From: Naegleria gruberi
Lineage: Eukaryota
Reading direction: 5' to 3' (one strand)
DNA: 64,000 nucleotides
Assembly: GCA_000004985.1 (NCBI GenBank)
Contig: GG738864.1
Made by a program: the position numbers and the translations under genes. Below the pieces are notes generated by a model that was not told the DNA's origin, did no database searches, and was given only the letters and a program-made list of their open reading frames with translations. Shown here piece by piece: positions 9,658 through 34,751 of this stretch; the stretch's first letter is position 1; the number at the start of each line of letters is the position of its first letter.

Positions 9658-10308
9658 ATGCAAAATTACACCACTAAGCAACAATTCACAGCTGAAAAGT
9701 CCATTGATGAAGCAATATCTTGTATTTCAATCAGTCAACCTTCAATGTCATCTGTTACAAAAAAGAACAGAAGAGGTGGAAGAGGATTGAGAAGAAATAG
9801 GACAATTCATCATGGACAGTCATCATTCACTGATCGTTTCTCATTCAAAACTCGTGCTAATCAAGTTTTATTAAGAAATGATCAAATGATTGCTGACAAT
9901 CAAACAAGACCGTCATGGGGAAGTTTGTTCACAACTTCTCAAAACATGTCAAATGCAGAGAAAGAATCTGCAGAAAGAATTGGATTGAATGATAATTTTA
10001 TCATGTCACCAATTTCTGGTTGCTTTTTGAAGTGGTTTGCTGGTGATGATTTGACAATTGACAGGCAAGCAATTTCAATTGTTAATAAGGTGTACATTCA
10101 AGAGGGTGTTTCAGTTAGTGTTGAAACAATGAAAGAATTGGAGGGAAAGGCTAATGTGGAAATAGTTGACTTTCGTAACATTTCGTTTATGCAATTATTA
10201 AACGAAACTAGAGATAAAAATTGTGTGTTGAGTATTCTTCCAATTTCAAACACCACTAACATGGAAACAGTCATGTTTCTCATTAGTGAATTCAAATTTA
10301 AAATGTGA
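9658..10308 (+). CDS. Hypothetical protein (216 aa)
   Basis: ATG at 9658 and a clean ORF to TGA 10308. It starts with a basic RRGGRGLRRNR patch. I recognised no domain. Confidence 0.35.
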   Translation: MQNYTTKQQFTAEKSIDEAISCISISQPSMSSVTKKNRRGGRGLRRNRTIHHGQSSFTDRFSFKTRANQVLLRNDQMIADNQTRPSWGSLFTTSQNMSNAEKESAERIGLNDNFIMSPISGCFLKWFAGDDLTIDRQAISIVNKVYIQEGVSVSVETMKELEGKANVEIVDFRNISFMQLLNETRDKNCVLSILPISNTTNMETVMFLISEFKFKM

Positions 10309-10795
10309 GATTCTATCAACTTGGGATTAGAATTGAACAAATGTTTTAGATCCCCATATATTATAAAGAAACTGAAAACTTTACCACTGGTACAATCAAT
10401 TGACATATCTATTTAAATATTCTAATTGAATCATCTTGTTGATCTGTATATCAACAATTCTTAATGTCATAATCTGAAAGAAATATTTTCCCTCCTGTTC
10501 TATCAATTGCCATTCCATACAAAAATCTTTCAATTTTCCAAATACAATCAGCACTTGATCCTAATCTCATTAAATTCTTCACTCTATATTTGAAAGTATA
10601 CTTATTCTCTCCAAAATAAATAGCATCATTTTATTGATCATCAAAATTCTCTTCAATTAACAAACCAGGCACTCCTCCTTCGACAAGAAAGGCTCCTAAA
10701 TATTCATGAGTAATCAAATCAAAAAATTTCACTTCAGAATTTGAAACATCAGAGATGCACAAACAATTGTGTGAGAAATATTGGCATGGTTCTTT

Positions 10796-13700
10796 TCAAT
10801 AGTCAAATAAATCATTCAAAGTTTCAAGTATTGACATGATTGGTGGTCGTTTCTCTTCCTCAGCTTTCCAACACTCCTGAATTAATCCACATAGACTGTA
10901 TACTTTGCTAGCTTCCAATGAATCAAAAGTTTGTGGATTATTTCTCTTACACCACTGAAAACATTCTTCCTTAGAATGGAAAGGGATGAGAGGTCTGAGA
11001 TTATCTTGACAAATCTTACTGGTGAGGAAGGGAGTACTTGGGAATTTTCTTTCCTTATCAAGATTTAATCGTTGTAAAGTTCTTGGTTCAGTGTAAGTGT
11101 AGGCATCTTGACATTCGAATAATAATTGCCACATGATAATGCCAAATGCATAAACATCACATGATTTGGCATCTTGAATAGTTCCATTAATCAATTGAGG
11201 GCTCATGAAATTATGTGTACCAATCAAGTGTGTCATTATTGAATTATTCTTATCTGACATTTTGCGTGACAATCCAAAATCACATAATTTACAAATTCCA
11301 TCTTTGGTTAATAAAACATTTCCTGGTTTGAGATCTCTGTGGACAATTGGAGTTGGTAAAGTGTGTAAATACTCAATACCTCTTGCAATACCTAAAAACA
11401 TTTGAATTTTACGATCAAATGTCATTATGACAGTTCCCTTTTCTAACTCATGAATTACATCAACTAGAGATTTGTCCAATCGTTCCATTACTATAAATCC
11501 CTTGTTAGGCATTATTGAAACTCCATAGAAAGATGTAATATTAGGATGTCTCAATTTGACCAGTATTTTGACCTCATTGATAAATTCCTGATCTTGAATG
11601 TCAGAATCCATTTCGAATACTTTTACAGCAACACTAATTCCTTTCCACATACTTTCTATAACCATTCCTTGTCCTCCTTTTCCAAGTCTCTTTCTATTTC
11701 TCAAGTCCAAATCACCAATAGGAATGATAAAATCATTTTGTGGACTAGATTCTGGATCTTGCAGCTCTATTGGTTTGTAATCATCACCAAATAACAATTG
11801 CTTTGATAGAGAATCTGCATCTCCAATAATTTTCTTCTGTTTTCCATATTTTCTGCACAGGAATACCAATAAAGACACCAATAATATCAAAAGTGCTAAA
11901 AAGACAATACTCAAAACGATTGGAACAATTGCTGAAATAACGGAATCATTCTTTTCACAATAATCTCCAGAAGATCCACTTAAACATTTGCAATCATCCA
12001 CGGAATTACACATTCCACGACCACTACATACGTTTGGATCATTCTGTGCTAAGCCATAACACATGGTAAATTGGCATTGGTTTCCTGTATATCTATTCTT
12101 ACTGCATGTACACTTATCAATATCGGTGCAATTTCCTCGACTTTTGGCACCTCCACACGCATCCGGGTTGACCTTTCCATAGCAGGTTGCAGTTTCACAA
12201 TTACTTCCCAAATATTGATCACTATTGCATTTGCAAGAGTTGGATGATTGGCATGTTCCTCTTCCATTACACACGTCCTTATTTGCATTGGTCAATCCAA
12301 AACACACAGGTATATCACATTCCTTTCCAGTAAATCCAGATTGACATTCACATTGATTATATCCTATGCATTTTCCTTTTCCACAAGCATCCCCCTCTGT
12401 TTTTCCATAACAAACAGGCAAACACAATGTGAAATTATCATTCAAAATGTAGCCATTAATTTCACAGTGTGGTGTCAATGTATAAATTGCTGTTCGAGTG
12501 CAATAAATGATTGAGCCAGTAAGTGGGTCGAATTCAATATCTAAGGCATTCTCATTCAGATTTGAAATAGTTTCCACTTCTCTTTCTGATTTGATTAAAC
12601 TAATTTTCCTTCCATATTTGTGAAGGACAATTATTTTGTTATCTAAATTGAATACAGGTGAAAATGGACCCTCCAATCCTGATTCAGCAATTGTTGTAAT
12701 TATTCCATTCTTATTAATTCTTCTAATTCTGTCATTTAACATGTCGCAAAATACTAGATCTCCGAAATCATTAATCAATAGTCCAGTAGGTTTGTTGAGA
12801 GAGGATTTCGTTGCTTGGATGTAGTTCGATCCTCTACCAACATCTCCGTCTCCTGCAAGAGTTGTCAGCATGCCATTTCTGTCAAGTTTTCTAATATTTG
12901 AAAATAAGTCATCTGTGAAATAAACAACATTGAAACTATCCACAACAACAGAATATGGATAAGCAATGCTCAATCTTTCAGTAATATTATCTCTTCCGTA
13001 TCCACCTAAAAATCATTTGATTAGAATCTTTGAGATTCTATGAAAATTTCAACATACCAGAAATGAATGTAATTTCTTTAGTTCTAATTGAATCTTCACC
13101 AGTCATGTTCAATCCTAAAACTCGGTGATTTCTCGAATCTAGAAAATAAAGCATGTCGCCATCCACAAATAAACCTTTAGGGCTGTTCAATTTAATCTTT
13201 GCTGGACTAGTGTCTCTGTTAAATCCAGAAACTCCAACTCCAATTGCTGTTGAAATAAAATGTGAATTCACATTAATTAGTCTAATACGATTATTGAAAG
13301 TATCTGAAACGAAAATTAATTCATTTCCATCGTGATCTGTATAATATTCAGCAAATGTTGGATAGAGAAAGCTGATAAAATTATTAGAAAGACTATGAAA
13401 GAAGCACATGTACTCACCTTGCACTCAGGGAGGAGCCACCATCACCTCCATAACCATCGCTTCTTCCTGCTATTGTTTGAGTATTGGAATTGGCATTGCC
13501 ATTTTGTAAAATTATCTTTCTAATTCTATGATTTGCTAATATAATTAGAATAGTTTGGAAAATTTGAAAACTTACCAGAATCTACAATATACAAATGGGT
13601 AATCTTCTCTGGTTTTTCAACACATAATAAACCATACGGTTGATTGAATGCTGATGCAAGAGGAGCCCCATCAATATATCCTTGATATCCAACACCTGCT

Positions 13701-15577
13701 AATAAGTATCCTCTAGTTTCTTTTAAAGGAAATTCCAAAATACGATGATTGAATGTATCTGAAACATATAGAGTATCTGAATTTGCAGAATATTTAATGT
13801 CAGTAGGAGCATTCATTTGGATTGCACGTCTTGGCTTACCACTATATGGAATAGCTGACCCATCATTGGGAATGGTGAATGTTGGAATTCCAGCAAATGT
13901 ATCAATTATTCCAGTAAGTAACGAAACGTTTCTGATCAATCCATTTCTTGAATCCACAATATACATGACATTTTTCACTATGCATAATCCTTTAGGAGTG
14001 GATAACTGAGCATTAATAGCTAATCCTCCATCACCACTAAATCCAGATTGTCCAGTACCGGCTACAACATAGATTTTCCCCTCTTTGGTAATTTTTCTCA
14101 CCATATTATTTCCTGATTCAGTGAAATAAATATTTCCATCATCTGCTTTGTAAATCGATAAAGGGGTGTCCAGAACTGCATTACTGGCATCCATTCCATC
14201 TTTCTGCTTATTTTTTTTCGAAGAATCAATTAGTACTGTTTTAACTTTCTTCTTGATAACAGCTAAGGATGTGACAGAGGTTTCTGGATCAATAGATGTC
14301 ACGTAAACGCTCTCATCTTCTCCTAAATCGAGCTCTGTATAAATTACACTTTGAGATGAGGAAATTTCAGTACTACTACCCTCCAAAGAGGATACTCTTC
14401 CTGTTGTGAGCGAAATATTTCGAATAATATTACCATCAGTCACGTACAAATTCCTCAATAGTGGAGATAAGGTAATTTTCTCCATTCCCGAAAATCCATA
14501 TTTTAACATGGGTATTCCGTCTAAACTCAATCCATCCTCTGAGAAGATTTTCATCAGATTTCCATTAATAATTGTTAAAATTGCATCGTGATAGGCAATG
14601 AATACATTACTTCCAATATACATATCAGTTACTTCTCCTAGTTCAACTTTGAGGGCAGGTCCATAACTGTACTCTGTTGAATCCTTTCCAGAACCAACAA
14701 TTGCCTTACTTGTTCCATTTCTATTAATTTCGAATATTCTCTGGTAGCAAAAGGCAAATAATTGATCTTGATAAATAGTGGAGGTTCTTAAAATTGTTTT
14801 TGAATTGATAAATTCTTCTTGGTTATTACCAGCTATGGTTACATTCATTGAAAATAGATATTTTGGTTGATTGCCAATTTCATCAAGAATAATGTAGAGA
14901 GAATCATCCTTCAACACGACGAATATTTCATTAGAATCCAAATTAATCGACATGGTAGCTATTGTCATATTAAAAGCAGCAACAGGTTCCGTCCTCAACT
15001 CATTCGTTGTAACATTAAAAGCCATAATCCTATTCGAATCGGCAAAATACAGCATTCCTCTATTAATGACTGCTCTGAGTGGTGGATTGGTCAATTGAGT
15101 TGGTTTCACAAGTGTAGTTGCCTTCCCTGACTTGGTATCAAATTTCCTAATGGCAGGTATTCCTTTATCAATGAAATACACTTGATCATAGGCAATTCCA
15201 TCATCATGAATACTTTTCGAAATGAAAATCGATGAAGGATTTGAAATTAAAGTACCATTCCAACCACCCTGTTTGCTATTAAATGGTTTTCCATACTCTC
15301 CAATCACAGTTTCCACATCACCACTCGACATGTTCACTCGCATGATGCTATTTTTCGAATGTGAAAAGTAGAAACAATTTGGATGAGAAACGGATGGAAA
15401 TACAGAGAGAATATTTCCGAGTTGAATATCTTGGGATTGAGCCAAGATGTTTTCTGCATAATTTACAGGAAGGGACAATTGGGATTGAACGTGATGATGA
15501 TGATAGAAACAAAGAAGAAGAAATGAAACTAAACAAAACGTGAATGATGTGAATAGTTGCATTTTTTTAAATATCAT
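10796..15577 (-). CDS. Receptor Ser/Thr (TKL-type) kinase, about 1525 aa: signal peptide, NHL beta-propeller repeats, four or more tenascin/teneurin-type EGF repeats, one TM helix and a cytoplasmic kinase (paralogue A)
   Basis: Exons are 15577..13576, 13470..13419, 13371..13058 and 13005..10796. Introns are 13575..13471 (GTAAGT...caatag), 13418..13372 (GTGAGT...ttatcag) and 13057..13006 (GTATGT...tttttag). The splice-restored junction reads ...IVDS|AGRSDGYGGDGGSSLSAS|FLYPTF.... NHL motifs recur (SDTFNNRIR, DSRNGLIRNV). The EGF repeats follow CxGxxxxDxxVCxGRGxCxxxxxCxCxxxxxGxxC. The TM helix is IVPIVLSIVFLALLILLVSLLVF. Kinase motifs are LGKGGQGMV, VAVK, HRDLKPGN and DFGLSR. Confidence 0.7.
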
Positions 15578-16422
15578 AGTGGAACCCGCTCATTGACAGC
15601 AGTTACTTACTCACCTTTCACTGCTGTTGAACTGACCATACCTGGAAGTTAAATAGTGATGGAATACGCTAAATAGTACGAACAAAAGATATTACACAAA
15701 TTACAATAACACAAAACCTCACAAGATGAAAGATTTATACAGCTCTTGCTATGAGAAGGGATTTTGGTTTTGTCAACACACGGTGTTGTTAACAATGTGC
15801 TGTTTACAGTGGTAATCATATCATCTTCGTGCTACTATCTTCTTCAACAACATGATGAGGTGTGGCTCCAAGTCTTTCTACTCACCAAACCAGAAGTTTT
15901 GCACGTAGATTTTGGTGAGTTAAAACAATATATTCTATTAATTCTAAAGAATATTCATCTTCTCTTGCGTTCGTCTTATCATACTTTTTGCAAATAAATA
16001 TTACCTGATGAGAGGGTTGGGTCATATTGCCAACAAGCGTTGCTGGTTTGTTGAGAGTGTTCAAAGTAGCAATTACCACATGTTGTTCTAGAAACAACAG
16101 TACTTCTGGGTTCTTGTACATGAACCTTCATTACCAACAATTTCAAGTAAATGGGCAGGCACTTACTAGATGATGTTTTGGTGAATGTAGTAATGGCTGG
16201 TGTGGAAGGAAGCAAAGGGATAGTCTCAAGGTAGCATGCTGCAGATTGGTATAGCGATGATGAAATCGTGATGAGTTATTATTGTTTTTTTGTTGAATAT
16301 TTAACGGTCAAAACAAACAACTTTCAGCGCGAAATTACAACATAACTACAAAAAACAATAAATTCAAGGTATAGACAAGTGTAGTAACCCCATCAAGGAA
16401 AAATACTTGTTGTGAATGTAAT

Positions 16423-16494
16423 CCCGTGTAGTCCAATGGCTAGGATACCTGGCTTTCACCCAGGAGGTCCGGGTTCAATTCCCGGCATGGGAGG
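16423..16494 (+). tRNA. tRNA-Glu (anticodon UUC)
   Basis: The sequence is tcccgtgtagtccaatggctaggatacctggctTTCacccaggaggtccgggttcaattcccggcatggga. It folds as a cloverleaf with a 7-bp acceptor stem (one G-U pair), anticodon loop cuUUCac and T-loop GGTTCAATTCC. The 3' flank is AT-rich. Confidence 0.9.
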
Positions 16495-16566
16495 ATAATT
16501 TTCCATTTACGATTTAATGTTTATTTCTCACGTTTTTTTAAAAGAAAGTCAATTATATATTCCCAA

Positions 16567-17511
16567 TCATGGCTTCTTACTTGTTTTTTTCTTAATGCAA
16601 ATCTTCTTCTTAATTGACTTGCAACACTTCTTCTTTCCACCAACTAATTTGAATTTCTTACAAATCTTCTTTCCCTTTGAACGTTTCAAGCATTTCTTAT
16701 AATACTTCTTCTTGATACATCTTGGTGGAATGACAATTGACTTTGCACAATACTTCTTCTTTTGATATTTGACACATTTGGAAATAGTCTTCTTGTGCTT
16801 ACAGAACTTGATTGTCTTATGCTTGGCACAGAAGAATTTCTTCTTAATGAGACAACATTTCTTGATGGATTTTCTCTCCTTACAATATTTAACCTTCTTA
16901 TACTTGGCACATTTCTTTGCCCATGCAACAATCTTGCACTTTTTAACATATCTACATTTGGCGACCTTCTTTTTGTAGGAATCAATAGTGTACTTGTCGC
17001 AAATCTTCCTCTTTTCACACTTCTTGATTGGAACCTTCTTGAATTTCTTACAGACCTTCTTAACTCCCTTCTTGAAACACTTGTTGATAATCTTGTGTTT
17101 GGCACAGAATTTCTTGAAACTCTTCTTGATGCAAATCTTTCTAGTTCCATAAGAATCACAAACTTTCCAATACTTCTTCTTGGCACATCCAACAATCTTG
17201 TACGCGTGCAAGACACACTTCTTTGTTGGCTTGCTGTACTTGTCACATTTGGAATATTTCTTATGTTTGAGACATTTGCCAGCACCGACGATGGCATATT
17301 TATCACAGACTTTCTTTTGACCGACGAGTTTGTGTTTCAAACACTTCTTAATCCACTTGTGCTTTAAGCATTTTCTCTTACAATGCTTTGGTTTGTGATA
17401 CTTGTCAACTATGGCGACTGGAGGTTTAGTTCGATAGGTGTCACTTGCTTGAACTGAGAGGATTGCAAGTAAGAGAAGAATTGCAAATGAAAAGATTAGA
17501 TTTGCTTTCAT
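16567..17511 (-). CDS. Secreted, extremely Lys/Cys-rich low-complexity protein (314 aa)
   Basis: ATG at 17511. The N-terminal signal peptide is MKANLIFSFAILLLLAILSVQA. The mature region is roughly 35-40% Lys with a Cys every 6-10 residues, in patterns such as KKC-x-KHK, CxKxK and KKCCK. Overlapping ORFs on both strands are mirror artefacts of the AAG/AAA/TGC repetition. Confidence 0.5.
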   Translation of the reverse strand: MKANLIFSFAILLLLAILSVQASDTYRTKPPVAIVDKYHKPKHCKRKCLKHKWIKKCLKHKLVGQKKVCDKYAIVGAGKCLKHKKYSKCDKYSKPTKKCVLHAYKIVGCAKKKYWKVCDSYGTRKICIKKSFKKFCAKHKIINKCFKKGVKKVCKKFKKVPIKKCEKRKICDKYTIDSYKKKVAKCRYVKKCKIVAWAKKCAKYKKVKYCKERKSIKKCCLIKKKFFCAKHKTIKFCKHKKTISKCVKYQKKKYCAKSIVIPPRCIKKKYYKKCLKRSKGKKICKKFKLVGGKKKCCKSIKKKICIKKKTSKKP

Positions 17512-17736
17512 TTTTTTTTGTTATTGGATGGAATAGTTCAACAAGTGGGTGATAATTTAAACCCTTTCGAATAGTTTTGCATTAGGAACAAACTAAAACA
17601 AGTTGCATGTAAGGTTCCAATTTTGGATAGAAAGCTGATCTCCATTCGAAATCTTTAACTAATTCAATTTGCAATTCATCTTTCAAAAGAATTCATAATC
17701 TTAAGGTATTGTTTCTCAGAAAATCATTAGATTAAG

Positions 17737-19119
17737 ATGAATCTTGAGTTGCATCGTTTGAAACGCGAACTCATTTCTAATGAACTTTCCAATAAAAAAT
17801 CATCAAAAAAAATGTCAAAAGAACTGCTCATTCAAGACACTTACGAATTTGTGGATATTTTCTCTCAAGTTTTCCAATTCATGGAAATTAAAGATATCTA
17901 TCCACTACAAAGAGTTTCTGGTTTCTTCTATCGGATGATTGAAAACTTGAAGGAAACTTACATTCGTCCAGTTTACGAAATCGGAGTTGTGGCCACAAAC
18001 GAAGAGCAGTTAGAAAATTTTATTCGAATCTATTTAAATTCATCACAACCACCAAAGAAATATCCAACAATGGACGAATTTATTGCTTCGGATAATTTCA
18101 CAGACGAAATTGCTTCCATTAATAATGTTTTTACAGTTTATGAGAAATACGAAAGGCAGTTTATTTTCAAACAAGATAGATTTAGGGCAATTTTCTATCC
18201 GATTCTGTGTCATAGACATGGAAGTTTGGGAAGAGATGAGCTGAATAGATTGGAAGGGTTTATTTTCCTTTCGCCAGAATATTCGACAGGTTATGCACTC
18301 ATGCCTGAGGGTGTTGATATTTGTGCAACTGTTTTGGATGATCACTATTATTCCAGTAAGCATTTCGTTAAGGAGGAAGAAAAGGAAAAGCTTACAGATA
18401 GAGGATTAGGATTTGTTAAAAATCCAAATTCGAATCCACCAAATACGAATCCACCTTTTGTAAAATTGAAGAAAATTCGAATGCCAGTCATTGAATTTGG
18501 AACTGTTGAAGTGGATGAGAAAGTTTACAAGTACCAGGAGGAATCTCTTGTACAATGCTTAATGTATATTGTGAGTCATTCTAAGAGATGTCTAGATTTG
18601 GATCACTCACTTTCGAATAAGAAACAAAATATGGAAGAATTGAAAGGTTCTCAAAAATTATTTGAAAAAATTACAAAATTAATCAAATTGAAAGATGAAG
18701 AGTTGATGAAAACATTGAAAAGTCTTTTCAAAAATCGATTTGAATATTACAATTTGTTGACCACAGACAATTTGGTCTACATGACGAAACGTCTATGTTT
18801 CTTCCACATTCCTCTTGGAGTTCAAGTTGTTTTATTGAAGAAATTATACACTACACTTGTAAAGAATACTGCATCCCTTTCTGTTAATAATGGAAAAGCT
18901 TCTGTCAAAGTGGAAAGTGAATTTATCAGTGTCCAGTACAAGCAATTAGTTTCCACCGACGATTATGAGTATGTTTATGGATATCATACAAGGAAAAATA
19001 AGAAGGACATTCGGATGGTAACTATTCGATTCTATTATGGAGAGAAAATTGAATTTAAATATGAAAATATTGGAAAGGAAAATACCACACAAAAAGAAGA
19101 TAAATGTTCTTTACAATAG
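17737..19119 (+). CDS. Hypothetical protein (460 aa)
   Basis: ATG at 17737 (MNLELHRLKRELISNE) and an uninterrupted ORF to TAG 19119. It is Lys/Glu-rich. I recognised no domain. A short hydrophobic motif near the N-terminus weakly resembles an F-box. Confidence 0.45.
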   Translation: MNLELHRLKRELISNELSNKKSSKKMSKELLIQDTYEFVDIFSQVFQFMEIKDIYPLQRVSGFFYRMIENLKETYIRPVYEIGVVATNEEQLENFIRIYLNSSQPPKKYPTMDEFIASDNFTDEIASINNVFTVYEKYERQFIFKQDRFRAIFYPILCHRHGSLGRDELNRLEGFIFLSPEYSTGYALMPEGVDICATVLDDHYYSSKHFVKEEEKEKLTDRGLGFVKNPNSNPPNTNPPFVKLKKIRMPVIEFGTVEVDEKVYKYQEESLVQCLMYIVSHSKRCLDLDHSLSNKKQNMEELKGSQKLFEKITKLIKLKDEELMKTLKSLFKNRFEYYNLLTTDNLVYMTKRLCFFHIPLGVQVVLLKKLYTTLVKNTASLSVNNGKASVKVESEFISVQYKQLVSTDDYEYVYGYHTRKNKKDIRMVTIRFYYGEKIEFKYENIGKENTTQKEDKCSLQ

Positions 19120-19159
19120 AGTTGAAAAGAGCTGTCAAAAAAGGAAAATAATTGAAATT

Positions 19160-22100
19160 TTATTTGAAATAATTGAGGGAAAGAAGTTGAGATGCATTTG
19201 GTCTTTGTTTTGAATCTTTTTCTAACATTTGCAATACAATTTCAATTAAATCATTCGAATATTCATTATCATTGGATTGTTTCATTTGTTTTGTTAGAAT
19301 GTTGATTGCGTTTTGTGATTGAATTCCCATCAACAAGTTGCTGATTGATGTTTCCTTGTCTTTTGTCATGATTTGATAAATTGAAACACCCAAAGAGAAA
19401 ATATCAGTATTAAAGGAATAGGAACTGCCAAGGGCAATTTCTGGACTCATATCTGAATGGTTTAGTTTCGTCTAAATAAAAAAATAAACTTACATAAAGG
19501 AGTTCCAGCATAGGATTGACCTTTTGATTCTTGAAACTTTTTAGCCAATCCAAAATCTGCCAAAACAATTTCAATTTTTTCACTTTCCAACTTTTTTATA
19601 AATATATTTGTTGGCTTAATATCTCTATTTTTCCAAAATTGATTTTACAAATTCCTAATATATACTTACCTATGAATAATATGCATCTCCTCATGAACAA
19701 GTTTCAATGCACTCAACATTTGTTTCAATATTTGCTTCAATAATTTCTCACTCACTACTTCGTCGTGTTTCAATAAATTTGTCAAATCTCCACATTCATA
19801 ATAATCCATGTCAATAATCAATAAATTGTCGTTGGTGATGAAATAATCATTCACCTTGATGATATTTGGATGATTGATATGGCTCAATTGGGATGCCTCT
19901 TTCATGATGGTATTCAAATCAGTGAATGATTCAAATCTGATAAGTTTGATTGCTTTCAGTTTGTTTCCATGTTTAATATCTGAAACTTTGAAAACACTTC
20001 CAAATGCTCCTTGTCCAATTCTTACAATATTCGAATATCTTGAGAAGGGATTTTCTTCAGAACTACTGGACGAGCCATTTGATGAAGAAATAATCATTGA
20101 GCTGGTGGAAGGAAATTCATTATCCGAAAGTTCAATATTGTTAGTATTGACCTGAACAATTTCCAATTTCTTATTCTTTCTTTTTCTTGAATTGAAGCAC
20201 ATTACCATAATGACTACTATTACAATTATTGTAAACAAAATTAATAAAGATCCAACAATAGGAATAACAATTGCAACTATTAATACTGATGAGTTGGTCG
20301 ATAATTGTCTTGCAATCTTAGTTATTTCACAATACTTTCCTTCAAAATCATCTTTACATTGACACGTGTCAAAATCCGAACAAATTCCATTTCCATTGCA
20401 AACACTTGAATTAGTTGCCAAAGTTCCATTACAATTCAATAGCATATCACACGTATTATTCCAAGTATTGAAAACATAATTTTCCTCACATTGTGGAATA
20501 ATCTTTCGAATATAAGTTGTTGCATCAATGAAGAAAATTTCACCTGAACTTTCGTCAAATTCAACTTGTTTTGTGAAGGAAGTAAATATTGTATCGGAAC
20601 CCTTTCCATCTCCATTGAATGCAGGAGAGGATGACCTCTTTCCAGCCAAGTCAATCAATAATCCACTCTTTTTCTCGTACATTCGAATAAGATTAGGAGC
20701 GCCTTTACTAGTTACTGTTCCATCTAACAATATAATATCACCATTCTTCTTGACAAAGATAGCAGAGGGGTTATCAATCGAAGATTCTAGTGCTGGTAAT
20801 CTGTCTCCTGAATATCCTTGAGAGAAAGTTCCCACCAAAGTTCTCAAATAAAATTGATTATTCGAAATCTTTTCAATTCTTCTAATGGTTTCCATTGTAC
20901 TTAAATAAAGATTTCCATCAATATAAAAAAGTGAAGTAATTAATCCAGGATACGTTTGAAAATTAACAACTATTCCGTCAGTAGATATTGGATTTGAGGA
21001 ATTGAACGTAAATTCCAGATTTAGTAGTTGAGTTTCCAAGCTGTATCTGTAAATATGCAAGATGTCTGATATTACTAAATCACCATTTGATTCATCTATT
21101 GTAAACCCTGACATTGCATTTGGTGGACAAGGTGAAAGTGTTCCCTTGACATTTGGTACAAAAGCTCCACAAGCACTTCCAATCACTCTTTCATAATTCA
21201 TAGTTTCTGGATCAAGTCTGATAATTCTACATGTTTCCTTAATGTATATCTTGTTATCAAATTTGGAAAGTTTACCAAAAGTTTTTAAACCAAGTATTGA
21301 CATGGTGATTGTCAAATAAGGAAAATCAAAAACTGGAATAGAAGGCAATAAAAACCAGCTAAGTGAAATTGACTTGCCTGTTTTTTCGTCAAACTTTTTT
21401 AAAACTCGATAATTATCAATGAAATAGTTTATCTTTTTAGCCGAATCTCTCATCAACAAAACAGGACTCAATGTTTTAGCTAATGGATTGAGTCCAGCTA
21501 TGGTTTTGATTGTTCCATTTGAAATTTCACTGATATAATTGGAGCAGGAGATGTAAATTCTTGAATCTTCTCTGTTCACTTGAATTGCATAACTTTGTAT
21601 TTGATTGTAATCTAATTTCAGTTTACAAAAATTACTTACGTTGCTGAAGTTTCAATAGGAATGTCATCACCATTGAATCCAGATGTATAAATATTAGTAT
21701 TTGAAATGTTAACCGCATCAAGTCCAACAATTTTCTTTAATGAAAGTGAATCCCATGAATATTCATAAACTTGTGAATAAATATAGAAATAGAAAATTCT
21801 GCCAAATGTAGTAAATCCATTAAATGATATATCTGATATTTTTCTAATACTAGTTGTATAATTTCCATTCTTATAATCAATATATTCATAAATACTGTTA
21901 CCAGAATAATATAACAGAGAATTAGTTCCATTTATGGTTAAATCTGGAATAACACGTATCAAACCTAACCCAGGGATATCAATTTTCAGGATATACAATA
22001 GATTGGATTTGTGAAAAACTGAAAAGGTTTGAACGTAAGTTTGATAATAAATTGTTGAATTCTCATAGGAATCCCCTGTTGCAGTAATGGCACTCGAATA

Positions 22101-23547
22101 ATATTTTGGATCGTGAACAAGTGTCAAATTTTGAGTTTCCATATTGAATACGTATAATCCCAAATTTATACTACCAGTAATCAAAATTTCTCCATTTCCA
22201 AAATGATGTAAAAAGCCAATTGAGAAGAAAATTCGACTAGGTTTGTTGGAGGGGTATTTCAATTCTTTGGAAGAGCCAAATACTGTTGTCATTTTCCCAT
22301 TCGAAACCTTTCGAATTACTAAAGATTGTTCAACAAAATAGAGATCGTTCTTGTATCGAAATGGAAATGTAGTAGCTCCGTAAGTGTACATTTTGAGAGG
22401 TGAAATATTTTCACCATACGGATGATTGATTATTCCACCTGCAAGTGTAGAAACCATCTTGCTTTGTAAATCAATCTTTCGAATACAACTGTTCGATTTA
22501 TCCGCAACCAAAATTGAATTACGAGTCACAATCAAAGAAGAAGGTTCATAAAACTTGATACTAGAGGTATCATATAATTGATTATCACCTTCATATCCAC
22601 TTTCAGATACAGAACTTCCAATAAATAAAAGAGTAGAGGATGATTTTTCCTTTTTCATCTGAATGAAATGATTTGATTGTGAAGAGGTGTAAATTTCACC
22701 TTCATTCGAAACATAAATTCCATATCTGAAAGTAAATATTAAATTTCATCATTATTACTATTCGAAACTTACAAATTAGATTGAGATAATCCTCCATCCA
22801 CAATTCTATAAAATCCATTTTCATCAATTGACTTGACTCTTTCCTCATCTGTGAAATATACAATATCATTCTTTCCATTATTAGAATAAACATATATATT
22901 CTTTGGTGATTTTAAAAGTAATGACTTGGCATCAACTCCATCATAATCTCCATTTAGATAACCACCTCCTCCTAATATGGAAAGTGTTTGAGTGGCAATT
23001 TCATATTTCCAAATTAAGTTATTATTAGTATCTGCAATGTAGGCATTTCCATTCTTTGAAACACTGACACCTTTTGGTTTGTTAAAGGTATGCGAAATGG
23101 AAGAAACCAATTTGGTCGAATACGAAACTATTCGAATCATATCATTCAAAGTATCGGCAATAAACAAATCACCATTCAATGGATTCACTGCCACAGATGT
23201 TGGTGTATTCAGTAGAGTACCAACAGCACTCTGTCCATCTCCATTAAACCCACTCGTTGTAAATCCAGCATAAACTTCCAAAGTTGACCAATTTTGATCA
23301 TAAATTCTATAAATTAAATGTCTTTCAATATCAGAAATATAAATCTCACCATTCAATCCTTCACATAATCCACTCGGTGATAACATGTAAGCAAATTTCG
23401 CATCCACCACATCAAAATTAGTTGTACTTCCTTCAATTGTTTTGGTTGAGTAATATTTCACATTCTTCGATCTTTCCACAGCAGCACATGTGCTGGCCAA
23501 CAAGTTGCTGAGCAGGAGTAGTAGTAGTATTGAAGTGGTGACCTCCA
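19160..23547 (-). CDS. Receptor Ser/Thr (TKL-type) kinase, about 1400 aa: signal peptide, NHL repeats, EGF-like module, TM helix and kinase (paralogue B)
   Basis: Exons are 23547..22773, 22725..21640, 21592..19670, 19624..19494 and 19452..19160. Introns are 41-47 nt and all use GTAAGT donors: 22772..22726, 21639..21593, 19669..19625 and 19493..19453. Splicing restores ...HEEMHIIHR|DIKPTNIFIKK...DFGLAKKF...GTPLY|MSPEI.... The signal peptide is MEVTTSILLLLLLSNLLASTCAA. The TM helix is VLIVAIVIPIVGSLLILFTIIVIVVIMVM. Kinase motifs are GQGAFGSV, AIK, HRDIKPTN and DFGLAK. Confidence 0.7.
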
Positions 23548-24212
23548 TTGAAAGACACCTGCCAACTGTCGCATGTCTTGAGTAATGGTACAACATGTTT
23601 GCTTTATTTTTGTTTATTTTGAACAATACATCTTGTGCGTCTATTTCCGAATAATCAATGTGGGTTAAAGGATAATTGTTCCAACTCCATAACAGATGTT
23701 GTAAAGAAATTGATGTATGGTGATTGGATGAATATTCCTCTTTTTTGGCAAGTTTCGTCATCATCTCATGCGGGTAAATTAGTGTTACTGTACCGTTGTA
23801 GTAGCTCGAACATTCTATGTTCAAAGGATTAGTCTAAATTCGAATAAAAATTAAAGATCTAATTAAACTCCACATGATTCATTTCTTGTGTAATATGCAA
23901 ATTATCAGCAATAGATTCAGGAAATTGTAAACTCCATCTTCATGATCCAATTCATAATATTCATTGTTTTCCAAATTTACAATAACTGAACAAACAAACC
24001 TTGCTTCAAAAAATCAACCAAACTCTCGTAATACCTTGCTTGGTTTTCGTTCCAACAATTCATCTCTTGCTGTAAATTAAGATGAATTACTGTGTGATCA
24101 AGTTTTTTCCTTAGATTCTAGTTGTAAAAGAGAATTCTCCATTTCTAAAAGAGATCCAAAGGAGGATTGACTAAAGTGCATACATATAAGTGTTAAAGTG
24201 ATTGTTTATTAA

Positions 24213-27200
24213 TTAATTTTTGAGTGAATTTTTCAATAGAGAAAGAATTTCATTAAAGTGGTGAATAGAAGGTCTTTGAGAAGGATTAGTTTCCCATCCC
24301 TTCTTAATTAAATCAAGTAATTGGTAGATTACTGTACTTTCTTGGAGTGAATAGGCCTTTTTCATTTCACACCAAGATTGACAATCTTCCAAAGTTTCGA
24401 ATGGAATGAGTGGACGATGTCCAGATGCAATCTTTGGAAGCAGTTGGCTTAATAAATTTTGATATTGAACTGGTTGTTCAAGATTCAACTTGTTTAATAT
24501 CAATGGATTCGTATAATAATAAGGATCCATAATTTCAAATAGAATTTGCCACATGATTATTGACAAACTATAAATGTCAACAGCAGTTAACAATTGCCTT
24601 TCAATTTCACCAAATGATTCAGGACTATTAATCAAAATCATTAGAAAGATAATAAATAGTAATACTCTACCTCATATAATAAAAAGTTCCAATTTGATTT
24701 GTAATTTGCGTGTTGTTTTGCTTATTCAAGAGTCTGGACAAACCAAAATCACACAACTTGCTCACTCCATGAACATCTTGCAAAATATTGGCAGGTTTCA
24801 AATCTCTGTGCACGATCGTTGGTTTCAGATTGTGTAAATATTCGATTCCTTTGCAGATATCAAGCATAATATCCATCTTTTGACTCAATGACAATTTCAT
24901 TCTATTAGATTGGAGTTCAGCAATAATATTTTCAAGACTTCTCTCCATTTTCTCCATTACAATATATCTCTTGGTTGGAGTAGAAGAAACTCCAAAGAAG
25001 GAAATAATATTTGGATGTCTCAATCTGGAAAGAACTGTTGCTTCAGACCTAAAATCATTTTCATCAATATTCATATTATTCAAATCGAAAACCTTAATAG
25101 CTACTTCAGTTCCAATCCATTGAGATTGATAAACTGATCCATAGCCACCAGAACCAAGTTTCTTCATTTTACCCAAATCCAACTTGTTAATAGAAATGAA
25201 GAATGAATCTGCTTCATCCTTCTTCTTTCCATCATTGTCAATTTCCAGTTCAAGCATGTTATCAGTAACAAATTGATCAGTTTTAATGATCTTTCTCTGA
25301 ACATAATACTTTCTGAATAGACCAATAATAATGAAAAGTGAACCACCAATGCAAAAGACAAGAACTGCAACACCTATTAAAGCACCAATAAGAGCCCACA
25401 GTTCATCAGAATGTTGACATTGTTCACCTGAATAACCAAATTGACAGGTGCATTGATTTGGAAGTGAACAACTGCCTCTTCCATTACAAACGTCTGCCTC
25501 TTTTTCATTCCTTCCAAAACATGTCATTAATTCACATTCTAAACCAGTATATCCAGTATTACAAGAACATTGATTCTTGTCAAGGCAACTTCCTCTTACT
25601 GAACCACCACAAGCCCCGTCAAGAATCTTTCTGAAACAAATTGGCGTTTGACACATTGAGGAAGTATATCCTTCTTTACAAATGCAAGTATTTGGAGCTG
25701 TGCAGTTACCTCTTCCATTTGTGCAAACACTGGAACTATTAGAAGCTTCTCCATAACAAACTGGTATTTCACATTCGAAACCTGTATATCGAGACGAGTC
25801 ATAACATTGACACAAATCTGGTGAAAGACATTCTCCATTATTATTGCAAACATTTCCACTCAACAGTTTGATCTTTCCATAACAAATTGGAAGGCAAGTA
25901 TCATTCTTTGAATAGACATGACCATTCTCACAGAAAGCTTCCAATTTTCTAACATTATTCAATGAAGAATCGATAAAGAATAATACATTTCCTTCATTGT
26001 TAATTGTCATGGAGGTGGGTGAAATACTGAAAGGTTTTGATTTGGTTTGAGATGGAGCAGATCCATCCCCCGCAATTACATCAAATGGATGACTAGCAAT
26101 GGTTGAAATCTTTCTAATAAAATTGTTTTTGCTATCTGAAATAATTGTTTGTCCCTTATAAGAAACAACTGAGGAAGGTGAATTTAAGGAACTTGTTTTT
26201 GGATCAGAGGTTTGAGAGAAGCCAGTGAACCCATTACCTGCTACAGTTTCCAATAATCCTTTCTTGTTAATTTTTCTCACCTTACTAATTCCAGATTCGA
26301 CAAAGATTAATTCACCCTCTTCATTGACATACAATCCTTTAGGTGCTGCAATATCTGATGAAATGGCCAATCTTCCATCCTCGGAGATTCCAAACAATCC
26401 AGTTCCTGCAATAGTTGAAATTACTCCATTTGTGGAAATCTTTCTAATTCTATTCTGAGCTGTTTCACTAACGTACATTTCACCACTCGAGGAGAAGGCA
26501 ACATACGAAGCCTCAACTTGTGAATAAAGAGCCAAGTTATTGTCGCCAATTCCTCCAGCAAATTTCTTTACCCACTTTCCTTCAATTTGACTTTCCAATA
26601 TTCTATTGTTACCTTTTCAAATTTCTTAATAAAATAATTCTAAATACTTTTAACTTACCTGAATCAGCAATAAATAAAATAGATTTGGAATGGTCAAAGA
26701 AGGTACATTGTGGATTATTCAATTTGACATTAGAACCTGTAATGTTTCCTTCGAAATAATTATAACCTGCAAAACCATTACCAACAACTGAATAAGTGGA
26801 CGAAAGGACAGCAAATCTAATTCTATGAGATTGGGAATCAGTAATGTGGATATCAGTTAAAGCAGATCCAACTGAGTTTACACTCGAAACACAAGTTGGT
26901 GTATTGTAAATTGCATTTGGTAAATTAAAATCATCTGTGTAACCCTTAGCTCCACTACCACTATGCGTAGTTACAGTTACTGGATCATTAAAAAGTGGTT
27001 GTAGATCAACATATCTAATACGATTATTTCCAGAGTCTGCAAAATAGATAATCCAATCTGAATTGAGAGAGAATCCCATAGGTGTGTCCAAATGAGTGGA
27101 GAGAGCTGGCCCATCACCATTGAATCCCTTTACACCACTTCCAGCAATGGTTTGAATAATACCAGTACTAAGAGTAATTTGTCTTAATCTATTATTGAAA

Positions 27201-29022
27201 GTATCAGAAAAAAACAATTCATGATAATAATTGACTTGGAGATAGGTTGGAGAATTCAATTGAGCAGTAAGGGCATTAATATTGTCTCCATTGTAACCTT
27301 GTATTCCATTTCCTGCAATGGTTTGGATGATTCCAGATGTTATGTTGACAGCTCTAATTCTATGATTATTGGTATCGGCAACATAGAGCACATTATTATC
27401 CAAATAGATTCCAGTTGGAGAATTAAGCTTGGCCAATGTTGCTAAACCACCATCACCATCAAATCCAGAAGTTCCACATCCAGCAACACCAATTACCACA
27501 CCACTAGTTCTGTGAACCTTAATAATTCTATGATTTCCAGAATCAGAAATGTATACATAACTAGTTGTTGCAAAAATTCCCTTTGGAGAGTTTAGAACTA
27601 GTTGATCTTTGTGTTGCTGTAAAAGCCTGGATGCTGTTATTGGACCTGCAAACATTGTTGAAATGCTTCCATTATATTTGTGAATGAAACCCTTTGATGA
27701 GACAACATATAGATCACTGTTATTGGTTGAGACTGAAACTGGATTGAGAGCAAAAGGTTGATAGGTATCAATGAAATTCAACTCCTTCTCTGGGGCTATC
27801 ATTTCAAGTTTGTTGTTTGCTGAGATTTTTCGTACAGCTCCATAGTCAGAAACGTAAAGGTTTCCACTTTGCTGATCCAGAACTATTCCAGTTGGAGAAT
27901 GAAGTGTTGTCTCACTAGAATTGTATCCATCAATAAATGGACCAATAACAGCTCCATCATAATTAATAAACAAGATCAATGATATTGTTTCATCAATCAT
28001 TGAAATTTTTCTAATTGTTTTCAGTCCAAAATCGCTAACGTACATGAAACCATTATGAATACCAAAATACTGATTTATGGCAATGAATTCAGCATCACTT
28101 GCCTTTCCACCATCTCCAAAAGTGGTTGCTTCCAAACTAGCCTGTTTACCATTTCCAACAAATCTTGAAATATTTCCATTTCTCAAATCCATTTTCCTTA
28201 TTGTCGAAGAAAGCTCTTTAGTATCCACGTATAGCAAGTAATTATCCACTCTCAACAGTCCTGGATGAGTAAAATCTAAATTTTCTACCAACAGCTCTTC
28301 ACCATTATCAATGGTCCATCTACAAAGTGATTTCACATCAATATCTTTAAATTTGAAATAATAAACGACACCATCATCATCCACATAGACATCCAAAACA
28401 TTTGATGATGTTGAAATGTAGGTGCTGACAATACCATTCTCTACTTTTCTAATTGCATCATTATACCCATCTGCAATGTACATAATTCCATCTTTATCAA
28501 TGAACATTGAATAGATCCTAGTGTGTATGAAATGTGTTAGATAAAGAACAAATAATTGAACACATACCCATCAAAGAGAGCTTCTCTTGCATCTCCTCCA
28601 TCACCACTATATCCTGATTCATCTTTGATTCCGACAATTACTGTATAATTAGCCTCAACTTTTTCATTGATAATACTTATGGAAGTGGAATCGGAACAAT
28701 AAACAACACCACTTTTAACATTCACGTATAATGAACAAATGAATGGCTTCTTGAGGAGTGTCATCTTTTTTGATACTGCATCTATTTTAGCAATGAAACT
28801 ATCATCCACGGTATCACATTCAAAATAAATGTGTCCTTCATTAGTAACATGGACAGCTCCTAAACCACTGAATACATTCTGTTTGTGAGGTTTGGTTACA
28901 TCACTCAGTGAGTATTTTGGTGTTGTTTGACCAAAGGATTCCCTTAGTAGGAATTGTGTGAAAAAGCAACAAGCTAACAACACTAAGGCAATGACGGATT
29001 GGAAAGGAAGGTGTTGCTTCAT
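24213..29022 (-). CDS. Receptor Ser/Thr (TKL-type) kinase, about 1555 aa: signal peptide, very long NHL beta-propeller region (probably two propellers), EGF repeats, TM helix and kinase (paralogue C)
   Basis: Exons are 29022..28559, 28507..26659, 26612..24671 and 24624..24213. Introns are 28558..28508 (GTATGT), 26658..26613 (GTAAGT) and 24670..24625. The last intron has a weak GTAGAG donor. Splicing restores the NHL consensus ...FIADSG|NNRILESQIEGKW... and the kinase ...GTFYYM|SPESFG.... The TM helix is LIGALIGVAVLVFCIGGSLFIIIGLF. Kinase motifs are LGSGGYGSV, AIK, HRDLKPANIL and DFGLSR. Confidence 0.7.
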
Positions 29023-29840
29023 ATTTTTTCTTCTTGTTCAACAAGTCTAATGAATGTTTGGTCAGTGCTAATAATTGGTTTTGCCTTTTCCAAGATTGGA
29101 GAATATATATGGAAATACTGTATTTTCCTTTACTGATCCTCTATTTTATATACAGGTAAAGATTATTATTAAGCAAAGAAATGTTCATAATATTGAATCA
29201 TTTTCAATACAACCCTTCAACTCTGTTTTGTCTGATTCTTTATTCACTATTACTACTCACTATATCACAATGAAATATAATGACGATGCATAACATTTCT
29301 AAGGAAAGTTTAAAAAATTTAGGAAACAAAGTGGCTTCACTTCTTCTCATCATTGTTGCTACCCTCATCAAACCTCAAAAGAGAGGAGGAATATTTCATG
29401 ATGAATAGAGGTACTCTAAGAGAATTAAGCTCTGAAACATTTATCAACTCACAAATGTCATCTCTTTAGTAAAACTTAAATTCGGAGCACAACAATTAAT
29501 CATAATAAATTAATACTCGGAGAAGATACACCAACAACAGATGAACTTAATTAACACTAGTGGAAGTTGGATGTAAACATTAGTATTACGCTAATTTCCT
29601 ATTCAACAATGGGACAATAATTGTGTGTTCCTTTAAGCATTCCTTCTTTTGAAATGTACACTGTCGAAAGTTGATCAAGTATTATCCTCCTACTTGTTGT
29701 AAAGACACAGTTCCTTAAATGAATTTAAGAGAATTTCCTCCTGTGACTCCAAATGGAGTTGACTTAAGTGGCAAATGAAGCAACCTTTCACACAACTTGC
29801 TCACTCCATCGTAAATCAAAGTTTTTCTTCAACTTGGAAC

Positions 29841-30800
29841 ATGTCAAAAATTACGAAAAAAAATGCAAGACGATTGTCTCTCATTAATCACAATCCTTCC
29901 CTACAGCTGAACGATGCCTTGTTCGAAAAATTTAAAATTCATATGAGAAGTTATCGGAATTGTGTGCCATTTTCAATGAAGTTTGAAGAGATGAATAATA
30001 TCAAGTCGATCGAACATAAATTGCACTGTCCCTCCCAAGCCAAGATTTCTCACTCACACAATTGTTTGTGCATCTCTGATAATTTAGATTCTGAACTGAA
30101 ATTTTTTGATTTGATTACTCATGAATATTTAGGAGGCTTTCTTGTTGAAGGAGTGACTGGTTTGTTAATTGAAGAGAATTTTGATGATCAACAAAATGAT
30201 GCTATTTATTTTGGAAAGAATAAGTATACTTTCAAATATAGAGTGAAGGATTTAATGAGATTAGGATCAAGTGCTGATTGTATTTGGAAAATTGAAAGAA
30301 ATCATATGTATGGAATGGCAATTAGAACAATTGGAAATCAGAAACAATTATTCAGATATAGTGCTTCCCAAGGAGTTATGGATATTATAGATACTGTGAA
30401 TGGAAAGGTCATTAAAGAGTTGAAACTTGAAAAACTCGACAGAGTAATGGATATTATTTTCATCAATCCAAAAAGAATGCTTGTTGCTGAACTTTTTCAT
30501 AATGCATGTTTTATTTATGATGAAATGAACGAAAATGAATGGAAATTGATACAAACAATTGAAAAAGCAGAGAATATTTATTTTAGTCAACCATTAGGAT
30601 TGGCAATTGACAGAACAGGAGGGAAAATATTTCTTTCAGATTATGACATTAAGAGAATTGTTGTATTTAATGAGAGTTTAGATTTGATTGATTGTCATTA
30701 TCCAGAATCTCTGAATCCATTTCGTCTCGATTTTGATGAAACAACAGGATTACTCTATATTACTGATCAACAAGATGATTCCATTAGAATATTTAAATAG
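29841..30800 (+). CDS. NHL-repeat (six-bladed beta-propeller) protein with an N-terminal Cys/His-rich segment
   Basis: The first ATG is at 29841 (MSKITKKNARR). The ORF-track start at 29775 is not an ATG. The C-terminal half carries NHL-like blades (IYFSQPLGLAIDRTGGKIFLSDYDIKRIVVF ... LLYITDQQDDSIRIF). The upstream HKLHCPSQAKISHSHNCLCISD segment looks like a B-box-like zinc knuckle. Confidence 0.5.
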   Translation: MSKITKKNARRLSLINHNPSLQLNDALFEKFKIHMRSYRNCVPFSMKFEEMNNIKSIEHKLHCPSQAKISHSHNCLCISDNLDSELKFFDLITHEYLGGFLVEGVTGLLIEENFDDQQNDAIYFGKNKYTFKYRVKDLMRLGSSADCIWKIERNHMYGMAIRTIGNQKQLFRYSASQGVMDIIDTVNGKVIKELKLEKLDRVMDIIFINPKRMLVAELFHNACFIYDEMNENEWKLIQTIEKAENIYFSQPLGLAIDRTGGKIFLSDYDIKRIVVFNESLDLIDCHYPESLNPFRLDFDETTGLLYITDQQDDSIRIFK

Positions 30801-33800: not shown

Positions 33801-34751
33801 CTGTATCTTCCCATTAAACCCTGTTGACCAAATCTAGTAATTTCAACTCCTTCCATATTAAACTTATCGACCAAACGAATAATAAAGTGACCACCAAAGA
33901 GTGAAGTTTCGGATGAATAATTCATAATAAGATCCTCTGAATACGATTCTTCTTGATAATAAACCAACCTCAGCACGAATTTTACCATTATCACTTGCAA
34001 AGTGAGTATAATTCAATGGAACATCCAAAACTATAGTCTTGTTTCCATTCAACAATTGAACAATCTTTCTTTCTTCATTCTGATTTGGAAATGGTTCACC
34101 AATTGCCCAATTCAATGAAGTTTCCTTTTGAGTTCTGTAATCATAAACTTCACCATAATCAGTTGAGGCAATCACAATAGAATCGCCAACTTTCCATGCG
34201 ACTGAATCCCTTAAAACAAGTTGATTACTTCCCTTAGTAGCATTCTTTACAATTTCTGTCCAACTTGGACCATCAATTTTACCAAAAATTTGGACAATGG
34301 AACCACTTAAAAAGGCAATACCTTTGGATCCCAAATTGGAGCCATCAAATGGATCAGAACCCATATCATTCACAGAACTATTGACACGATCTCCATAGAA
34401 TGTCATGACAATCTTGGAAGTGATTGGACATGAAGAACTTCCCATAATAAAACTTGCGTTTTGTTCAACTCTGATGAAATTCAAATCCAAATTGAGATTG
34501 ACATTATCAAAGATTAATGAACCACCAGATTTTATGGTGATGGAACGAAGCTTATTTGGAGGAGAATCATTTAACTTGACAGCCTTGGTTATGAGAATGT
34601 CAGAATTAGCTACATTCCATCCAACTAAGGATGAAAAGTTGACTAAACCAGTTTTTTGATGAGGACATTGTCCACTGACCATGCCAAGCATGAATAAACA
34701 CAATAAACATGTGCCTATACATGCCTGTAGAAGAAAAACTTTAGAAAGCAT
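30876..34751 (-). CDS. CEMIP/TMEM2-family protein (G8 domain + GG domain + parallel beta-helix; cell-surface hyaluronidase-like)
   Basis: ATG at 34751 with a signal/anchor sequence MLSKVFLLQACIGTCLLCLFMLGMVSG. The G8 domain ends at ...LLSRRIVFRG. There is a 48-nt intron 33801..33754 (GTATGT...ttctaatag). The spliced product joins GQQGLMGRY|SFHFH, the family GRYPIHFH motif, followed by HHSYQRCYVVHDTHYILLQNNVCYRAYGHMYFLEDGSEYGN and a long beta-helix exon 33753..30876. An unresolved frame discontinuity remains near 33880-33960. Confidence 0.65.

Follow-up and report, generated by a model that had tools for sequence, protein, structure and literature searches.

A 64,000-nucleotide stretch of Naegleria gruberi DNA (assembly GCA_000004985.1, contig GG738864.1), referred to below as the window, carries three long genes on its minus strand, here called g1, g2 and g3. 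Each of them joins NHL-repeat blades, a stalk of the epidermal growth factor (EGF) type, one transmembrane (TM) helix and a protein kinase domain in a single polypeptide. The locus therefore raises the question of what such proteins are: whether the combination of domains is genuine, and which known receptors they resemble. We conclude that g1, g2 and g3 probably encode type I single-pass receptor Ser/Thr kinases, which would sense their ligand by means of NHL propellers.

The window contains no Ns, has a GC content of 33% and shows short introns. The gene models were composed of long minus-strand open reading frames (ORFs) joined by the shortest frame-preserving GT-AG introns (40-52 nt). Single-exon ORFs of the window are identical to the N. 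gruberi NEG-M proteins EFC45143, EFC45148, EFC45141 and EFC45242. The three models, with lengths in amino acids (aa), are as follows.

15577..10796, minus strand: g1, predicted TKL-type receptor kinase, 1547 aa; minimal GT-AG model with exons 15577-13576, 13535-13418, 13371-13058 and 13005-10796.
23548..19160, minus strand: g2, predicted receptor kinase of a second subfamily, 1402 aa; minimal GT-AG model with exons 23548-22773, 22725-21640, 21592-19670, 19624-19494 and 19452-19160.
29022..24213, minus strand: g3, predicted TKL-type receptor kinase, 1555 aa; model equal to the deposited protein, with exons 29022-28568, 28517-26659, 26612-24671 and 24624-24213.

The introns measure 40, 46 and 52 nt in g1, 47, 47, 45 and 41 nt in g2, and 50, 46 and 46 nt in g3. 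Letter for letter, the spliced g3 model is the protein EFC45236.1 (XP_002677980, NAEGRDRAFT_66846, UniProt D2VDH5), which is labelled 'predicted protein'; for g3, the public databases thus already hold a correct annotation. The coordinates and lengths given by an earlier, sequence-only reading of the window are borne out for g1 and g3, whereas the start of g2 was one base off (23548, not 23547).

The long N-terminal part of each protein is occupied by NHL blades. Pfam was run on the full spliced proteins, with gathering cut-offs of 20 bits for NHL (PF01436) and 22.1 bits for EGF_2. The NHL profile scores 35.6, 63.2 and 55.7 bits in g1, g2 and g3, respectively, and TEN_NHL scores 60, 42.5 and 96.9 bits. 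A custom blade hidden Markov model (HMM), made from the g3 blades, recognizes about 13 NHL-like blades in g1, 10-14 in g2 and about 16 in g3, the N-terminal ones being degenerate. NHL-repeat beta-propeller sequence is thus found in all three proteins, and the many NHL blades proposed for them are confirmed, with PF01436 above its cut-off throughout and approximately 10-16 blades each.

12635..15394, minus strand: g1 NHL-blade region (aa 62-935), about 13 blades, N-terminal ones degenerate; Pfam and blade HMM.
20599..23389, minus strand: g2 NHL-blade region (aa 54-952), about 10-14 blades, many degenerate; Pfam and blade HMM.
25909..28755, minus strand: g3 NHL-blade region (aa 90-1006), about 16 blades; Pfam, blade HMM, phmmer against the PDB, AlphaFold2 (AF2) and Foldseek.

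In the PDB, phmmer matches the g3 NHL region to a bacterial 'teneurin-like protein' (2e-56) and also to SOQ1, NHLRC2, teneurin-2 and the PknD sensor (1rwi). AF2 modelling of g3 residues 440-1001 (562 residues, 38-sequence alignment) gave a predicted local distance difference test (pLDDT) score of 80. Foldseek matched this model to the NHL propellers of SOQ1, NHLRC2 and teneurin with E-values of 1e-15 to 1e-26, and to propeller/EGF receptors of the LRP6 type as well.

Between the propellers and the membrane lies the Cys-rich stalk. In g1 and g3, a conserved Cys loop is followed by four six-Cys EGF modules (regular expression and Cys map), whereas the Cys map of g2 shows the loop and one such module. 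EGF_2 scores 29.1 bits in g1 and 46.5 bits in g3, in which EGF-like modules are thereby recognized; the g2 module, at 19.7 bits, stays just below the cut-off. The EGF modules also score on the Pfam profiles EGF_TEN and EGF_Teneurin. The run of EGF modules ascribed to every gene is therefore present in g1 and g3, but reduced to a single module in g2.

11957..12466, minus strand: g1 Cys loop and four EGF modules (aa 992-1161); Cys map, EGF_2 and EGF_TEN.
20329..20490, minus strand: g2 Cys loop and single EGF module (aa 989-1042); six-Cys pattern, EGF_2 sub-threshold.
25417..25932, minus strand: g3 Cys loop and four EGF modules (aa 999-1170); Cys map and EGF_2.

The TM and N-terminal hydrophobic segments were called by Kyte-Doolittle hydropathy alone. 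Each of the three proteins has a single internal TM helix, as had been proposed.

11858..11935, minus strand: g1 TM helix (aa 1169-1194), window peak 3.35.
20197..20286, minus strand: g2 TM helix (aa 1057-1086), hydropathy peak 3.27.
25318..25395, minus strand: g3 TM helix (aa 1178-1203), hydropathy peak 2.86.

All Cys-rich modules and 10-14 NxS/T sequons sit N-terminal to this helix. The N-terminal hydrophobic segment exceeds the hydropathy threshold in g2 and g3 and falls below it in g1, where it was read by eye; the signal peptide claimed for all three proteins corresponds to this signal-like segment.

On the other side of the membrane helix, Pfam Pkinase scores 145.6, 190 and 167.8 bits in g1, g2 and g3, respectively.

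10817..11698, minus strand: g1 kinase (aa 1248-1541); motifs GKGGQG, VAVK, HRDLKPGN, DFG and SPQ; top PDB match CTR1, 3.7e-35.
19166..20037, minus strand: g2 kinase (aa 1140-1401), two introns; motifs HRDIKPTN, DFGLAK and GTPLYMSPE; non-TKL.
24249..25170, minus strand: g3 kinase (aa 1253-1544), one intron; motifs GSGGYG, VAIK, HRDLKPAN, DFG and SPE; top PDB match CTR1, 7e-36.

The G-loop, the VAIK Lys, HRD and DFG are present in three of the three kinases, and g1 reads SPQ in place of APE/SPE. Judged by these motifs, g2 and g3 carry the full set of a predicted active eukaryotic protein kinase (ePK), and g1 carries all but APE. The kinases had been described as active-looking, with HRDLKP[GA]N loops; the catalytic motifs are indeed essentially intact, but g2 reads HRDIKPTN and DFGLAK. 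The best PDB matches of the g1 and g3 kinases are CTR1, ZAK/MLT, TAK1 and TNNI3K, and their best named database relatives are the plant Raf-like kinases EDR1/CTR1/SIS8 (38-42% identity), together with 'TKL-CTR1-DRK-2'. The g2 kinase instead finds STK25/24, CDPK, ULK3 and NEK1/7 as its best PDB matches. These similarities point to membership of g1 and g3, but not of g2, in the TKL group. In addition, the kinases of the g1/g3 family have in common a C-lobe insert of about 50 aa (g1 aa ~1445-1500, window ~11100-10940; g3 aa ~1450-1505, window ~24540-24370). Its signature 'RP.IPF ... C..WC' is kept in the N. lovaniensis and metagenome relatives of the family alignment.

The ectodomain and the kinase are continuous at the level of the exon. 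In g1, NHL blades, the four EGF modules, the TM helix and the complete kinase all fit into a single 725-codon ORF (10796-12973). The ORFs 19666-21579 of g2 and 24667-26598 of g3 likewise run uninterrupted through NHL blades, EGF, TM helix and kinase N-lobe. As one exon in each gene spans everything from the last NHL blades through EGF and TM helix to the kinase N-lobe, the fusion is not a prediction artefact. This continuity excludes separate genes at the critical junction and agrees with the assignment of NHL/EGF and kinase to one gene. The introns between the upstream exons cut through NHL blade motifs, which splicing exactly rebuilds (for example IVDS joined to ANHRIRKI).

In the receptor reading, which we consider likely, the proteins would be located at the cell surface. 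The large extracellular sensor, with probably several NHL beta-propellers (10-16 blades), would bind an extracellular ligand, for which bacterial-prey or cell-surface molecules are candidates. The rigid, disulfide-rich EGF stalk, with four modules in g1/g3 and one in g2, would lift this sensor above the membrane. Ligand-driven clustering, or dimerisation, would gather the cytoplasmic RD-type kinases, which would then cross-phosphorylate their activation loops and subsequently the downstream targets of a signalling pathway.

Several observations weigh against this reading. AF2 modelling of the full g3 ectodomain (9 sequences) reached a pLDDT of only 52. The sole GenBank product for g1 is the 157-aa partial EFC45233.1, 100% identical to part of the g1 kinase, and the full-length g1 model is absent from the public annotation; likewise, an exact-sequence look-up did not find the g2 model in the public protein collection. 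The start codon of g2 is uncertain, because in-frame ATGs exist upstream of the signal-like segment. Moreover, the SPQ of g1, which places Gln at the APE glutamate, might weaken the predicted kinase. The public annotation of g1 itself appears incomplete, since the gap-free sequence supports a clean 1547-aa model, by which the 157-aa fragment should be replaced.

The partial g1 product, the SPQ of g1 and the predicted introns on which the g1 and g2 models rest would also fit wrongly joined NHL/EGF and kinase genes, or decaying pseudogenes. We regard such an origin as very improbable. The gene-fusion artefact is rejected by the one ORF that NHL, EGF, TM helix and kinase share in each gene. Furthermore, the g3 model equals the deposited protein, the interrupted blade motifs are restored by splicing, and the architecture recurs at other loci and in other species. 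No in-frame stop occurs across the 4.2-4.7 kb coding sequences of g1, g2 and g3, and reading frames of 1400-1555 codons stay uninterrupted despite the 33% GC of the genome. There is similarly little chance that the ectodomain is an enzyme, namely a six-bladed propeller of the SGL/lactonase, arylesterase or lyase type whose catalysis the kinase would couple to signalling. This idea draws on weak Pfam matches to SGL (30.2 bits in g1 at a cut-off of 26.3, though no single stretch exceeds it), Arylesterase and Vgb_lyase. However, these are related propeller families, their matches overlap the stronger NHL and TEN_NHL matches, none of the three has a significant stretch of its own, and no catalytic-site evidence was found.

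A role in adhesion concerns function rather than structure. The proteins would then be teneurin-like adhesion or recognition molecules acting between amoebae, or between amoeba and substrate or prey, and the kinase would merely report or regulate adhesion. The NHL part is closest in sequence and structure to bacterial teneurin-like proteins and teneurin-2, the stalk modules score on teneurin-type EGF profiles, and Naegleria possesses kinase-less NHL+EGF surface proteins, such as N. lovaniensis C9374_003885. Nevertheless, the profile similarity is generic to the NHL and EGF folds, and neither the YD shell nor any further interaction domain of teneurins is detected by Pfam. The present evidence does not separate adhesion from ligand sensing, and we consider a purely adhesive role unlikely rather than remote.

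The three genes are not equally related. g1 and g3 are 32% identical end to end, with 29% over 970 aa of the ectodomains and 40% over 355 aa of the cytoplasmic parts. They have no intron at a shared position, in line with the diverged introns noted earlier. Compared with g1/g3, g2 reaches 24-25% identity in the NHL repeats (about 400 aa aligned) and 25-32% in its kinase domain. Of the 'three paralogous' genes, g1 and g3 are thus paralogs, whereas g2 offers repeat-level NHL similarity and a kinase of another class. The term 'tandem cluster' likewise suits the adjacent g2 and g3, but g1 is split from g2 by two unrelated ORFs.

16567-17511, minus strand: intervening ORF between g1 and g2, no significant Pfam match.
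17737-19119, plus strand: intervening ORF between g1 and g2, no significant Pfam match.

A neighbour-joining (NJ) tree of the kinase domains (213 columns, 100 bootstraps), a crude method with limited sampling, reflects the same division. g1 and g3 group together with 97% bootstrap, and they join NAEGRDRAFT_66049, two N. lovaniensis proteins and a metagenome protein with 68%. g2 pairs with NAEGRDRAFT_70916 (100%) outside the TKL cluster. Ten plant receptor-like kinases (RLKs) form a 99% clade with no Naegleria sequence inside, the Eph receptor tyrosine kinase (RTK) is placed elsewhere, and the bacterial kinases do not group with the Naegleria kinases. Across TM helix, juxtamembrane region and kinase, g2 and NAEGRDRAFT_70916 are 51% identical. 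The ectodomain of NAEGRDRAFT_70916, however, is closer to g3 (32% over 1062 aa) than the g2 ectodomain is. Cassette exchange, or rapid divergence on the side of g2, may lie behind this pairing of a g3-like ectodomain with a g2-like kinase.

Relatives were collected by an exhaustive representative search. Most of its matches were giant proteins of EGF or NHL repeats, and they were screened with separate NHL, EGF and kinase phmmer queries. The complete combination of NHL, EGF, TM helix and kinase was found in NAEGRDRAFT_70916 (2807 aa) and NAEGRDRAFT_66049 (2331 aa) on other N. gruberi scaffolds, in N. lovaniensis C9374_001816 (1239 aa) and C9374_014037 (971 aa), and in the metagenome proteins P0392 and P0132. 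NAEGRDRAFT_63569, also on another scaffold, and P0006 have EGF, TM helix and kinase. P0131, encoded on an intron-bearing eukaryotic metagenome contig, carries an RCC1 propeller before EGF, TM helix and kinase. A contig of JGI metagenome 3300062347 from an uncultured eukaryote (L002; gene 10001-13063, RCC1 fragments from ~7900) encodes an RCC1 propeller, many EGF modules, a TM helix and a TKL kinase, the latter of the same type as in g1/g3; the type of propeller that precedes the EGF stalk appears interchangeable in this family.

Sequence comparison indicates that the divergence of the copies is old and that the family is dispersed, at least genus-wide. Since N. lovaniensis, metagenomes and further N. 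gruberi scaffolds all contain relatives, the family is not a local tandem burst, and the 'lineage-specific expansion' proposed in that sense is not upheld. Retention of the architecture across species argues for function.

A broader scenario may be drawn from this pattern, which we offer as speculation and consider doubtful. Heterolobosea would have independently built receptors with a multi-propeller NHL sensor and an EGF stalk, and joined them at least two times to unrelated kinase classes (TKL in g1, g3, NAEGRDRAFT_66049 and N. lovaniensis; non-TKL in g2 and NAEGRDRAFT_70916). The NHL part is most similar to bacterial teneurin-like proteins. In this scenario the receptors would act in the manner of pattern recognition, on bacterial prey or in self-recognition, and Discoba would have invented surface immune or feeding receptors independently. 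Regardless of this scenario, if the proteins are working surface receptors, they would represent a receptor-kinase system assembled independently of animal RTKs and plant RLKs, in a deep-branching lineage with the lethal relative N. fowleri. They would also provide a eukaryotic counterpart to bacterial NHL-sensor kinases, and candidate sensors of prey, surfaces or other cells for the amoeba.

The genes surrounding the three receptors include further repeat proteins.

1858-3177, plus strand: pyridoxal phosphate (PLP)-dependent enzyme.
4672-6768, plus strand: DUF4116-repeat protein.
29775-30800, plus strand: small NHL-like ORF, 341 aa; Pfam NHL 19.3 bits (cut-off 20), 2-3 weak blades by the custom HMM.
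40728-43586, minus strand: GH116 beta-glucosidase.
52921-54573, plus strand: NAEGRDRAFT_48621, unassigned N-terminal region (about 180 aa) followed by about nine teneurin-type EGF modules.

The small NHL-like ORF, which had been described as an NHL protein at 29841-30800, has a marginal NHL signal by its score, and its exact protein is absent from the public collection. The neighbour previously called a 'B-lectin/EGF' protein (52921-54573) does contain EGF modules, but Pfam found no B-lectin match in it, even at E<=1. Directly after the stop of g1, the segment 10412-10774 (minus strand) is a broken copy of the g3-flanking gene at 29775-30800 (plus strand); tblastn aligns the two at 79% identity for 103 aa and then, in a shifted frame, at 48% for 67 aa. 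It is unlikely to be debris of the g1/g3 duplication, given 79% identity versus 32% for g1/g3. Because its identity so far exceeds that of g1/g3, the relic is probably a later, separate partial duplication. Next to the receptor genes, at 30876-34751 (minus strand), a single large protein, secreted or at the surface, is probably encoded by several exons; the ORFs there show G8 domains, a CEMIP beta-helix, CEMIP domain X and a CHRD match below threshold.

How the three proteins compare with known receptors can now be considered. Animal RTKs are set apart by the catalytic loop, which reads HRDLKPGN, HRDIKPTN and HRDLKPAN in g1, g2 and g3, respectively, and HRDLAARN/HRDLRAAN in Tyr kinases. Plant wall-associated kinases (WAKs) and S-domain RLKs are similar in being single-pass proteins with extracellular EGF-like modules and a Ser/Thr kinase of the broad TKL/IRAK-like type, and plant RLKs are significant matches of the kinase domain. 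The closest named kinases, however, are the Raf-like CTR1/EDR1, and the Naegleria kinases lie outside the RLK/Pelle clade. Plant RLKs are not known to have NHL propellers. Membership in RLK/Pelle is rejected, as the 99% plant clade excludes all Naegleria sequences in this crude and sparsely sampled NJ tree. The proposal that the proteins fit neither animal RTKs nor plant RLKs is supported by both the Ser/Thr-type loops and this tree.

Teneurins resemble the Naegleria proteins in combining an NHL propeller with teneurin-type EGF modules, here in a membrane-proximal run, and 9pt5/9ifo and teneurin-2 are the top PDB matches in sequence and fold. Teneurins are type II proteins, in which EGF repeats are followed by the FN-plug, the NHL propeller, the YD-repeat shell and a C-terminal toxin-like domain. 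The Naegleria proteins, by contrast, appear to be type I on the basis of hydropathy and end in a predicted cytoplasmic kinase; no YD/RHS, FN-plug or Tox-GHH match was found by Pfam in full-length g1, g2 or g3 (E<=0.01). Membership in the teneurins is rejected on the absence of YD/RHS and toxin domains and the predicted opposite topology, and the description 'built like a teneurin' is correct for the types of domain but not for these features. LRP5/6 and the LDLR family also place six-bladed propellers and EGF modules in a type I ectodomain, and LRP6 and LRP2 are Foldseek matches. Several propellers are joined to a kinase in the RTK ROS1/Sevenless. The propellers of LRPs and ROS1 are of the YWTD and not the NHL type, LRPs have no kinase, and ROS1 carries a tyrosine kinase where HRDLKxxN is found here.

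Among protists, single-pass receptors with a Ser/Thr/Tyr kinase, or transmembrane kinases (TMKs), typically have lineage-specific ectodomains (Yin et al. 2023, PMC10463195). The Naegleria proteins conform to this pattern, as do the Entamoeba TMKs and the amoebozoan and oomycete TMK clades, each with group-specific ectodomains. The Entamoeba ectodomains are reported to be Cys-rich repeats of another kind (PMC2880585). The text of the cross-kingdom TMK survey (PMC10463195) mentions neither Naegleria nor NHL nor EGF. In the searchable literature, NHL/EGF receptor kinases of Naegleria are undescribed, and their locus tags and accessions are cited in no paper there. Homologs of 'SOQ1' and 'RCC1/UVR8' are tallied in a pangenome study of Naegleria (PMC9928731), and these counts may include propeller receptors of this kind. 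Because lineage-specific TMK ectodomains are the expected pattern in protists (PMC10463195), the locus opens no long-standing question.

PknD of Mycobacterium tuberculosis shares with the Naegleria proteins an extracellular NHL propeller as sensor, one TM helix and a Hanks-type Ser/Thr kinase. Bacteria are thus already known to have Ser/Thr kinases with NHL sensors, and the g3 NHL region detectably matches the PknD sensor in the PDB. A bacterial-style kinase+NHL protein (P0391) was also among the screened matches. PknD has its kinase at the N terminus, lacks an EGF stalk and forms just one six-bladed propeller. In the Naegleria proteins, by contrast, the order is reversed, the blades number 10-16 and EGF modules are present; their kinases belong with eukaryotic TKL or other ePKs. 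Membership in the bacterial PknD type is thus not supported, and the functional analogy stands. By such analogy, the likeness in function would be strongest to the PknD-type NHL-sensor kinases of bacteria and to the propeller/EGF receptors of eukaryotes, and g1, g2 and g3 represent a lineage-specific variant of the common receptor-kinase theme.

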